From Escherichia coli (lineage in GTDB: Bacteria > Pseudomonadota > Gammaproteobacteria > Enterobacterales > Enterobacteriaceae), in NCBI RefSeq assembly GCF_050320075.1, contig NZ_CP190018.1: DNA of 64,000 bases; one strand, written 5' to 3'. Below are positions 3,793-41,622 of this stretch, piece after piece; within the stretch, counting starts at the first letter, position 1, and the number at the start of each line of letters is the position of its first letter. The position numbers and the translations under genes are program-made. The notes beneath the pieces were generated by a model. It saw only the letters and a list, made by a program, of their open reading frames with translations, ran no database searches and had not been told where the DNA came from.

Positions 3793-4710
3793 ATGTCTAA
3801 ACGATTACCACCGCTAAATGCCTTACGAGTTTTTGATGCCGCAGCACGCCATTTAAGTTTCACTCGCGCAGCAGAAGAGCTTTTTGTGACCCAGGCCGCA
3901 GTAAGTCATCAAATCAAGTCTCTTGAGGATTTTCTGGGGCTAAAACTGTTCCGCCGCCGTAATCGTTCACTCCTGCTGACCGAGGAAGGGCAAAGCTATT
4001 TCCTCGATATCAAAGAGATATTTTCGCAATTAACCGAAGCGACGCGTAAACTCCAGGCCCGTAGCGCCAAGGGGGCGTTGACGGTCAGTTTACTCCCCAG
4101 TTTCGCCATTCATTGGTTGGTTCCGCGACTTTCCAGCTTTAATTCAGCTTATCCGGGAATTGACGTTCGAATCCAGGCGGTTGATCGTCAGGAAGATAAG
4201 CTGGCGGATGATGTTGATGTGGCGATATTTTATGGTCGGGGCAACTGGCCGGGGCTACGGGTGGAAAAACTGTACGCCGAATATTTATTGCCGGTGTGTT
4301 CGCCGCTACTGCTGACTGGCGAAAAACCCTTGAAGACCCCGGAAGATCTGGCTAAACATACGTTATTACATGATGCGTCGCGCCGTGACTGGCAGACATA
4401 TACCCGACAGTTGGGGTTAAATCATATCAACGTTCAGCAAGGGCCAATTTTTAGCCATAGCGCCATGGTGCTGCAAGCGGCTATCCACGGGCAGGGAGTG
4501 GCGCTGGCAAATAACGTGATGGCGCAATCTGAAATTGAGGCTGGACGTCTTGTTTGCCCGTTTAATGATGTACTGGTCAGTAAAAACGCTTTTTATCTGG
4601 TTTGTCATGACAGCCAGGCAGAACTGGGTAAAATAGCCGCCTTTCGCCAATGGATCCTGGCGAAAGCCGCTGCTGAACAAGAAAAATTCCGCTTTCGTTA
4701 TGAACAATAA
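3793..4710 (+). CDS. gcvA: LysR-family transcriptional regulator of the glycine cleavage system
   Basis: 305-aa ORF with N-terminal LysR HTH (LNALRVFDAAARHLSFTRAAEELFVTQAAVSHQIKSLE); recognised as GcvA. Confidence 0.92.
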   Translation: MSKRLPPLNALRVFDAAARHLSFTRAAEELFVTQAAVSHQIKSLEDFLGLKLFRRRNRSLLLTEEGQSYFLDIKEIFSQLTEATRKLQARSAKGALTVSLLPSFAIHWLVPRLSSFNSAYPGIDVRIQAVDRQEDKLADDVDVAIFYGRGNWPGLRVEKLYAEYLLPVCSPLLLTGEKPLKTPEDLAKHTLLHDASRRDWQTYTRQLGLNHINVQQGPIFSHSAMVLQAAIHGQGVALANNVMAQSEIEAGRLVCPFNDVLVSKNAFYLVCHDSQAELGKIAAFRQWILAKAAAEQEKFRFRYEQ

Positions 4711-38411: not shown

Positions 38412-39725
<1,314 letters not shown>

Positions 39726-39750
39726 GTCTGACTTTATCTGATTTAAAAAT

Positions 39751-39776
39751 GCCAGCCTTCGGGCTGGCATTTTTTA
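39751..39776 (+). terminator. intrinsic terminator after eno
   Basis: GCCAGCC-ttcg-GGCTGGC stem-loop followed by ATTTTTTAT. Confidence 0.8.
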
Positions 39777-39784
39777 TGGTTGAG

Positions 39785-40657
39785 TTACCAGCGACCGGAC
39801 GCGCCGCCACCGCCAGAAGAACCGCCCCCGCCGCTAAATCCGCCGCCACTTGAGCCGCCACCGGAACCGCTGTTGTCTGAATGATAACTTCTACCAGATG
39901 CTTTTTTCTGAAGTACACATAAACAGGTAAAGACCATAATGGTGGTGAAAGTAAAAAAGAAGAAAAATACAGCACTGGAAAAAGTTTTATCGGAGAACAG
40001 GAATAAATCTAAAAGATAGATTGCTGAAATACAGACACTGCTTTTACATGCGCGACAAAAATTACTGCCTTGATGAAAAAACCAGAAAGGGAAGAACATC
40101 ACTGCAAATACCCAAAAAATAGCAAAGTAATAATGATCACTGGAAGACGCTGATTCAATTTCTGAAGGATTAGCCGGATATTGGTGTTGTGAAGTGAGTT
40201 GGTTATTCAAAGCGTTTATAGCTAGCTCTAATCCCTGAGCTAATTTTTGTTGTTTAAATGCGGGTATCATGTTGCTACGGATGATATCTCCAGCCAGAGC
40301 ATCGGTTACCTTTTCTTCCAGCCCATAACCTACCTGGATGCGGACAGTACGATCCGACCAGGCAACAATGATCAGTATCCCATCATTACGTTTGGCATCT
40401 CCTAAACGCCAATTGTCAAAAACCCGTGTAGCATATTTTTCAATTGTCTCGTCTTTGGTTGTGGGAACAATTAATACAGCAATTTGCACTTGGGTATTAT
40501 TGAAAATAGATTCTAACTTGTACGTCAGTTCTTTCTTTTCTTGTGAGTTTAAGCTACTCGTAAGATCCGTAACTTGTTGCTGTAATGATGGGACAATAGT
40601 TGGTTGGGCTGCAACAAAGGAACACACGAATGTGAATATTAGTATGAAATAGCGCAT
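39785..40657 (-). CDS. ygcG: TPM-domain membrane protein with Gly/Ser-rich C-terminal tail
   Basis: ORF 39785..40702; start placed at [10 protein letters not shown] giving 290 aa; signal/anchor, TPM-like region, TM segments, C-terminal [23 protein letters not shown]. Confidence 0.8.
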
Positions 40658-40950
40658 TATAAATGTCCCATTAAAGCTGGATAAATAAATTGACGGCGGC
40701 ATCGGTAATTTGAGATTCGTTATAATTAAAAACGAACACAGAAAAAATAAGTATAATTTTGGTGAATGTTTTTGACATGATTAAATCCCTTTACTTTATT
40801 TATTTCTGACATAATACGTTACTCCCTTTTATTATTAACGATCTGTTTCTCATTTTTCTTTAAACCTGCCTGTAACAGAATGTTAATAAGACATGATTGT
40901 TGTGGCAGGATCTGCAATAATTAACAATTATCCACTTCACAGAGAATGCT

Positions 40951-41622
40951 ATGCAGTACCCGATTAACGAGATGTTCCAGACCCTGCAAGGTGAGGGTTA
41001 CTTTACCGGCGTCCCCGCCATTTTTATTCGTTTACAGGGATGCCCGGTTGGCTGTGCCTGGTGCGACACCAAACACACCTGGGAAAAGCTTGAGGATCGG
41101 GAAGTCTCCCTTTTCAGCATTCTGGCGAAGACCAAAGAGAGTGATAAGTGGGGGGCGGCGAGCAGTGAAGACTTGCTGGCTGTCATTGGTCGCCAGGGAT
41201 ACACCGCGCGGCATGTGGTGATTACGGGTGGTGAGCCTTGCATTCATGATTTGCTGCCACTTACTGACCTGCTCGAAAAGAACGGTTTTAGCTGCCAGAT
41301 AGAAACCAGCGGTACTCATGAAGTGCGTTGTACGCCGAATACCTGGGTCACCGTGTCGCCAAAGCTAAATATGCGTGGTGGTTATGAAGTATTGTCGCAA
41401 GCCCTGGAGCGAGCTAACGAAATCAAACACCCAGTTGGACGCGTACGTGATATCGAAGCACTGGATGAATTGCTTGCGACGCTGACCGATGATAAACCGC
41501 GAGTCATTGCACTGCAGCCGATTAGCCAAAAGGATGATGCCACACGTTTGTGCATTGAAACCTGCATTGCGCGTAATTGGCGTTTGTCGATGCAAACACA
41601 TAAATATTTAAATATTGCCTGA
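40951..41622 (+). CDS. queE: 7-carboxy-7-deazaguanine synthase (radical SAM)
   Basis: 223-aa ORF with radical-SAM Cys motif (CPVGCAWCDTKHT); recognised as QueE (YgcF). Confidence 0.9.
   Translation: MQYPINEMFQTLQGEGYFTGVPAIFIRLQGCPVGCAWCDTKHTWEKLEDREVSLFSILAKTKESDKWGAASSEDLLAVIGRQGYTARHVVITGGEPCIHDLLPLTDLLEKNGFSCQIETSGTHEVRCTPNTWVTVSPKLNMRGGYEVLSQALERANEIKHPVGRVRDIEALDELLATLTDDKPRVIALQPISQKDDATRLCIETCIARNWRLSMQTHKYLNIA

Follow-up and report, generated by a model that had tools for sequence, protein, structure and literature searches.

The window analysed here is a 64,000-nt stretch of Escherichia coli DNA (contig NZ_CP190018.1, assembly GCF_050320075.1). It carries ygcG on its minus strand, and the neighbours of this gene, eno, pyrG and queE, all lie on the plus strand. 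The features at and around ygcG are as follows:

39745-39774, both strands: hairpin of a bidirectional intrinsic terminator of eno (plus) and ygcG (minus), 10 nt beyond the ygcG stop codon, with a 13-bp stem flanked by A5 and T6
39785-40657, minus strand: ygcG coding sequence, 290 amino acids and a stop codon, from the open reading frame list, the translation and the RefSeq annotation of identical records
39788-39838, minus strand: terminal 17-codon motif (residues 274-290), conserved family-wide, in which E. coli ygcG alleles differ only synonymously
39839-39871, minus strand: proximal G/S segment (residues 263-273), the variable part, where the amino-acid substitutions among E. coli alleles are located
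39902-39907, minus strand: A6 homopolymer (T6 on the plus strand) within codons for QKK, upstream of and 22 nt outside the interval 39785-39880 that an earlier sequence-based annotation (the original prediction) had singled out
40671-40812, minus strand: small open reading frame equivalent to yqcG (annotated 'cell envelope stress response protein'), from alignment with the BL21 yqcG and lemA 5' ends

YgcG consists of a signal-like N-terminus, a TPM domain (residues 29-152), three hydrophobic helices within residues 174-250 and a Gly/Ser tail. The original prediction had named the gene ygcG and its product a TPM-domain protein, and this assignment is upheld by a match to Pfam PF04536 (TPM_phosphatase; residues 29-152, E 9.5e-37, 126.2 bits against a gathering cut-off of 22.1), which covers profile positions 1-124 of 125, and by RefSeq, where E. 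coli genomes with 100% identity to the queried sequence have the gene named ygcG. The interval 39785-39880 corresponds, on the minus strand, to the TAA stop codon (39785-39787) and the final 31 codons of the 290-residue open reading frame. The Gly/Ser-rich C-terminus described there is real: 24 of the final 28 residues are G or S (16 G and 8 S), and with a G+S frequency of 0.12 in the rest of the protein the chance of 24 or more is P = 1.5e-18. The GC content also spikes at 0.69 in the tail, compared to 0.38 in the ygcG body and 0.51 in the flanking genes. The tail peptide and its GGN/AGC-rich coding had also been given correctly; Ser, however, is encoded by five kinds of codons, and Gly by four (GGC 9, GGT 5, GGA 1 and GGG 1). 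The feature is the ordinary annotated 3' end of ygcG and not a hypervariable repeat. Its Gly/Ser tail is already known as a feature and is uncharacterised as a motif.

The hairpin beyond the stop codon has a folding energy of -20.7 kcal/mol on one strand (z -4.8) and of -20.3 kcal/mol on the other (z -6.3). This hairpin was not listed by a simple consensus terminator scan, although folding reveals it, and no Rfam family was detected in 39000-41500. Copies of IS4 were observed within this terminator at window position about 39752 in three loci that include both types of gene cassette described below, and about 2 of 60 rows spread evenly over the genome survey had such an insertion. These insertions suggest that the eno/ygcG terminator is a preferred IS4 target. 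In one of the three loci, IS600 adds to the disruption and ygcG is missing.

Tracts of this composition had been predicted to vary in length between strains by slippage. Taken further, the whole tail could be a functionally indifferent G/S tract whose length drifts by replication slippage in GGN/AGC repeats, and its extreme G/S composition and weak 12-nt periodicity (TRF period 12 nt, 2.3 copies, 81% matches, score 35) are what such a tract could look like. At the DNA level, however, the longest perfect tandem repeat in the tail is 2 x 6 nt (12 nt), no exact direct repeat is longer than 10 nt, and the several perfect tandem units of a slippage-prone simple sequence repeat were looked for in the tail DNA and were absent. 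There is little substrate for slippage in the tail DNA, because synonymous codons are mixed.

Tail length was surveyed by searching 5,426 complete E. coli genomes with queries that included flanking sequence, and rows spaced evenly down the ranking were inspected (32 + 48 + 48 rows). A ygcG-type gene spanned the query in about 4,220-4,250 of these genomes. No in-frame change of tail length was found in the about 128 ygcG-type rows sampled from roughly 4,200 genomes, so the comparison of ygcG 3' ends across E. coli returned a constant tail length in the sample. A sample of this size, which leaves out two records in the 80-90% identity band, limits in-frame length variants to roughly <2-3% of ygcG-type genomes. 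The span of the record equalled the span of the query in the sampled rows with two exceptions, neither of them in-frame. The K-12/BL21 allele class showed a constant 1-nt offset in one query, which was compensated in the longer query and lies outside the tail. Four alleles were translated in full (window, F8, BL21 and ECSD228); all four encode 290 residues and align without gaps, and their tails differ by point substitutions alone. The amino-acid changes among them (G to A, S to D, G to S and G to D) are confined to the proximal 11 residues, and the distal 17 codons differ only synonymously.

The actual slippage site at the locus is the A6 run and not the G/S tract. In the A7 variant, YgcG is frameshifted to ...QKKSIW* and the entire tail is lost, as seen in the translations of two loci. 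The A7 allele is matched at 100% identity by 60 or more complete genomes (fewer than about 86, judged from rank spacing), which come from many laboratories; they include APEC O78:H4, APEC O2-211 and FDAARGOS strains, and many are avian-pathogenic. A sequencing error as the source of these 'frameshifted' ygcG genes was considered and ruled out: since at least 60 independent assemblies carry A7, it is a real allele and not an artefact. Loss of the tail or of the gene is tolerated by E. coli lineages that have the A7 frameshift, or IS insertions or deletions at the ygcG locus. Whatever the tail does is therefore not essential, at least in these lineages.

A different cassette lies between queE and eno in ~780 of the 5,426 E. 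coli genomes (about 15%, including O157:H7). These genomes match just bases 1-148 or 1-167 of a 301-base query, which represent the eno end, the terminator and the tail. In two loci with this cassette it comprises lemA and three TPM genes, namely TPM1 (224 aa, tailless), TPM2 (382 aa) and TPM3 (297-304 aa), over about 3.5 kb with a GC content of 0.42-0.48. The paralogues TPM2 and TPM3 have the same C-terminal ending as YgcG, and the protein identity between TPM3 and YgcG is only 42%. Two segments of the window describe the exchange:

39785-39866, minus strand: DNA block 100% identical in ygcG and TPM3 (BLAST and alignment against the two loci above), ending at the left junction of the cassette polymorphism
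39867-40745, minus strand: cassette specific to the K-12-type allele (ygcG body and 3' part of yqcG), 879 bases, GC about 0.38, delimited by BLAST flank ends

The last 26 codons, the stop codon and the terminator of TPM3 are 100% identical in DNA to the window, and directly upstream the identity collapses. The left junction is thus placed inside the G/S tail, at 39866/39867. The right junction lies at about 40745, 11 codons into lemA and within yqcG of the K-12-type locus. The eno-queE interval of E. coli is therefore observed in two states, with both junctions inside coding DNA. The conserved block of tail and terminator probably provides one homologous edge for an exchange between the yqcG-ygcG cassette and the cassette of lemA and three TPM genes. 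At the other edge, an internal ATG of yqcG (40778-40776) is the lemA start codon, and 11 lemA codons are common to the two. We considered yqcG as a decayed 5' end of lemA, but the similarity past these 11 codons is weak (12-18 of 500 shuffles were as good), and the relationship was kept as a junction only. Of note, yqcG of the window has one extra A relative to K-12/BL21 (A5 instead of A4, about 40769-40773) and is frameshifted; 'frameshifted' flags of PGAP were present on yqcG in three window-like alleles.

Length variation in a tail of this kind does exist in TPM3. Two common states, found in roughly 340 and 430 genomes as estimated from row spacing, differ by 12 nt (GGGS), inserted just before F at position -17, a place equivalent to the proximal segment 39839-39871 of YgcG. 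The terminal motif is intact in both. This indel speaks for a slipping, indifferent tract, as does the proximal length variation across the family. The extra GGGS unit, however, differs from the adjacent unit at 2 of 12 bases, so it represents an old duplication or deletion and not a fresh slip. The claim of slippage-driven length variation thus found no support in the ygcG tract itself, given the lack of a long repeat, the constancy in ~128 rows and four alleles and the fixed distal motif. Variation does occur nearby, in the 12-nt indel of TPM3 and at the A6/A7 site, by other mechanisms. Slippage is therefore unsupported for ygcG and supported in part for the locus as a whole.

The fixed distal motif emerged from the comparison of YgcG with its relatives. 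A HMMER scan of 1.84 billion cluster representatives returned 20,956 relatives at E <= 0.001. Among the best 150 of these 20,956 (mutually <50% identical), the final residue was W in 135, and most of the other 15 look like fragments or truncations. When 132 representatives were aligned from the C-terminus, they had a fixed-register motif, [FYW]-[SG]-G-G-G-G-[SGR]-[FS]-G-G-G-G-[AS]-S-G-x-W-COOH ([FYW] = 84 + 11 + 10), with 2.3-4.3 bits of information per position over the last 17 positions and no indels. YgcG residues 274-290 fit the consensus [FYW]-[SG]-G4-x-[FS]-G4-[AS]-S-G-x-W-COOH at every position. In an alignment of 113 sequences, W290, G278, G279, G284 and G285 are invariant. Upstream of the motif, the sequence is rich in G, S and R and its positions are unconserved; between the last hydrophobic span and the C-terminus, family representatives have 24 to 92 residues, with a median of 42. 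These alignments indicate that the terminal 17-mer is under strong purifying selection, and that the upstream linker is free to vary in sequence and length. An indifferent tract does not account for 17 distal residues that are fixed in register and sequence across phyla. For the distal motif this explanation is largely refuted, and for the tail as a whole we regard it as improbable.

The motif was also searched for on its own, as a DNA pattern of motif and stop codon with the rest of the protein left free, in one genome per species. The scan returned at least 120 loci, and the window sequence matches the pattern. At least 122 open reading frames ended with the motif; among the matches listed, 106 of 122 carried a TPM domain, and the end of the locus truncated 14 of the remaining 16. 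The last two were a split TPM match and a 127-aa open reading frame without TPM. The matches listed came from Alpha-, Beta-, Gamma- and Deltaproteobacteria, Bacteroidota, Ignavibacteriae, Verrucomicrobiota, Lentisphaerae, Elusimicrobia, Nitrospirae, Nitrospinota, Chlorobi, Cloacimonadota and Acidobacteria. Because nearly all motif-ending open reading frames listed encode TPM proteins, the motif is a signature of the TPM family rather than a general-purpose tag for sorting or docking. The tail had been expected to recur on further families linked to LemA, DUF2207 among them; for this exact motif the expectation was dropped, as the strict motif was essentially confined to TPM proteins among the matches listed. 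A protein search with the 45-aa tail gave a single meaningless match, and neither Pfam nor NCBIfam holds a model of the tail, both covering just the TPM domain.

The genomic surroundings of the motif were recurrent. In 61 of 68 evaluable loci of the motif scan, the upstream 3.5 kb contained a lemA homologue on the same strand. The window has no full lemA upstream of ygcG; only the first 11 lemA codons persist, inside yqcG. When LemA was looked for beside three family representatives, the neighbours on the short contigs retrieved were not LemA. In some non-enteric genomes, a second TPM-like gene without a signal peptide was observed directly upstream of the tailed TPM gene (locus L014, 4513-5882; locus L013, 1-1457). 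Its product would be a cytoplasmic TPM paralogue and a candidate partner of the tail in trans.

The location of the tail was deduced from the membrane spans. In 98 of 102 motif carriers the TPM domain comes after a signal-like hydrophobic segment, as it does in YgcG, and about three hydrophobic spans follow the domain in 104 of 113 representatives. In the genome sample, one span was scored after the TPM domain in 41 members, three in 47 and two in 17. The 17 'two-span' members have one span and a hydrophobic patch of 10-15 residues after RRRGG, which is too short to cross the membrane. In the unambiguous single-span members, RRR directly follows the span and is itself followed by the tail. Basic clusters occur after TM1 and after the last TM; in TPM3 the latter segment is NKKLRAKYKKLSKDRASRK, with nine basic residues. 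Because an odd number of spans follows an exported domain, the tail is expected to be in the cytoplasm, and span parity together with the positive-inside rule points to the same location for the tail of YgcG. Five single-span members, and others besides, were seen to carry the hydrophobic patch, e.g. LGALLPWIILSGSL, between RRRGG and the glycine-rich tail. This patch may be a second conserved cytoplasmic element.

The AlphaFold2 (AF2) model of YgcG (113 homologues) comprises a confident TPM domain, helices at residues 174-193, 199-220 and 226-250, and a linker (residues 251-271) that is disordered (pLDDT <50). In the motif the pLDDT rises to 77 and then to 91, and residues 281-289 (window 39791-39817) are modelled as a beta-strand. 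When the TPM domain was removed (residues 163-290, 63 homologues), the three helices were retained, the pLDDT of the motif was about 54 and the strand disappeared. Since the strand and its confidence vanish without the TPM domain, AF2 docks the motif on this domain as an added strand. As modelled, this docking conflicts with the topology deduced above, which sets the motif and the TPM domain on opposite sides of the membrane. The docking may be an artefact, given that the motif is invariant and offers AF2 no covariation support; it may mean that the motif truly prefers a TPM-like beta-edge, one encountered in trans; or the deduced topology may be in error.

In a rival reading, the motif would lie on the side of the TPM domain and fold back in cis as an extra beta-strand, forming a lid or an autoinhibitory plug as AF2 models it. 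The pLDDT of about 91 for the last 10 residues of the full-length model, its drop upon removal of the TPM domain and the near-invariant surface residues on this domain are consistent with such an arrangement. It requires, however, an even number of spans, and the family has one or three after the exported domain; single-span members with RRR right after the span, and TPM3 with its nine basic residues after the last span, are at odds with it as well. In addition to the lack of covariation, the contrast between the two models is weakened by the shallower alignment of the TPM-less one (63 instead of 113 rows). We consider docking in cis unlikely, though slightly less so than an indifferent tract.

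A cytoplasmic tail could also be a C-terminal degradation or quality-control tag for an AAA+ or membrane protease, which would set the turnover of the protein. Bacterial degrons generally sit at termini, and a disordered linker with a conserved extreme C-terminus, a free carboxylate and a cytoplasmic location expected from topology would suit this role. The motif nevertheless exceeds by far what known C-terminal degrons need, with 17 conserved positions and two G4 blocks at fixed spacing, and it bears no resemblance to the nonpolar ends of the ssrA type. A degradation tag is, in our opinion, the least probable of the explanations considered.

We favour, and hold to be fairly probable, a two-part tail on a membrane-anchored TPM protein of the COG1512 type, in which a variable linker carries a constrained terminal 17-mer that would act as a cytoplasmic docking motif. 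It is an observation that the motif exists, keeps a fixed register, is restricted to TPM proteins, spans many phyla and is constant within E. coli. According to the proposed mechanism, the TPM domain would be exported, and with one or three membrane spans after it the tail would stay in the cytoplasm. The disordered linker would then present the terminal peptide, with the free carboxylate after the invariant Trp, as a short docking motif. The 17-mer would bind a conserved partner or another subunit, probably by beta-strand addition, and docking would couple the periplasmic TPM module, which in most genomes would include LemA, to something on the cytoplasmic face. The most specific form of this proposal, in which the 17-mer is a cytoplasmic docking strand for exported TPM/LemA modules and is anchored by Trp and carboxylate, is a speculative one that we think has a small but real chance of being correct. 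If true, the docking strand would be an undescribed short linear motif common to thousands of bacterial species.

Independently of its mechanism, the motif is a strictly conserved C-terminal peptide, unmodelled in domain databases, of a bacterial membrane protein family that is very large and whose function is unknown. Treating the tail as a motif gives an experimental handle on the YgcG/LemA system. E. coli provides natural material for such work, namely a lineage made tailless by frameshift and two cassette types with a common tail.

In the literature searched on ygcG, on the terminal motif and on TPM with LemA, nothing functional on ygcG or its tail was found, the mentions of the tail being just 'glycine-rich' or 'low-complexity'. 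Proposed functions of TPM domains, which are unsettled, include phosphatase or ATPase activity, metal binding and assembly-factor roles (PMC11237479 among the sources). The locus resembles simple-sequence contingency loci in having repetitive coding DNA near the end of a gene and a nearby A6/A7 run that shifts the frame in one lineage. It differs from them in that the YgcG tract has neither a long perfect repeat nor length heterogeneity in the sampled alleles, and in that the A7 state is probably an inherited allele of a lineage, unlike phase-variable contingency tracts.

Among TPM proteins, a 'low-complexity segment' after the TPM domain has been described in YdjH of Bacillus subtilis (PMC11237479). 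TPM proteins of the YdjH type have PspA/band-7 as their genomic partner, whereas the tailed family described here has LemA (61 of 68 loci), of which the window keeps only an 11-codon remnant. The photosystem II repair and assembly factors Psb32 and TLP18.3, which have one C-terminal TM helix, are similar to YgcG in their TPM fold and in the order of exported domain, linker and membrane helix. In contrast to YgcG, Psb32 lacks the glycine-rich extension. [quoted passage not shown] YgcG is not an equivalog of Psb32, as it scores 39.2 bits against a cut-off of 160 (NCBIfam NF047379).

The fold of YgcG matched the structures 5ANP, 7TBR, 2KW7 and 3PTJ. Its TPM domain found its best match, in sequence (E 1.1e-22) as well as in fold, in BA41 of Bizionia argentinensis (PDB 5ANP), the nearest relative with a solved structure. 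BA41 is a membrane-anchored TPM protein from another phylum, Bacteroidota, which is cited as a reported ATPase/ADPase in a passage of PMC11237479. The TPM domain of BA41 superimposes on that of YgcG with a Foldseek E of 1.8e-11 and a TM-score of 0.90 on the target. Just this domain (about 145 residues) is resolved in BA41, and the tail is without structure. The deposited 277-aa sequence of BA41 ends with ...GGGFGGGGASGGW, the same terminal motif as that of YgcG.
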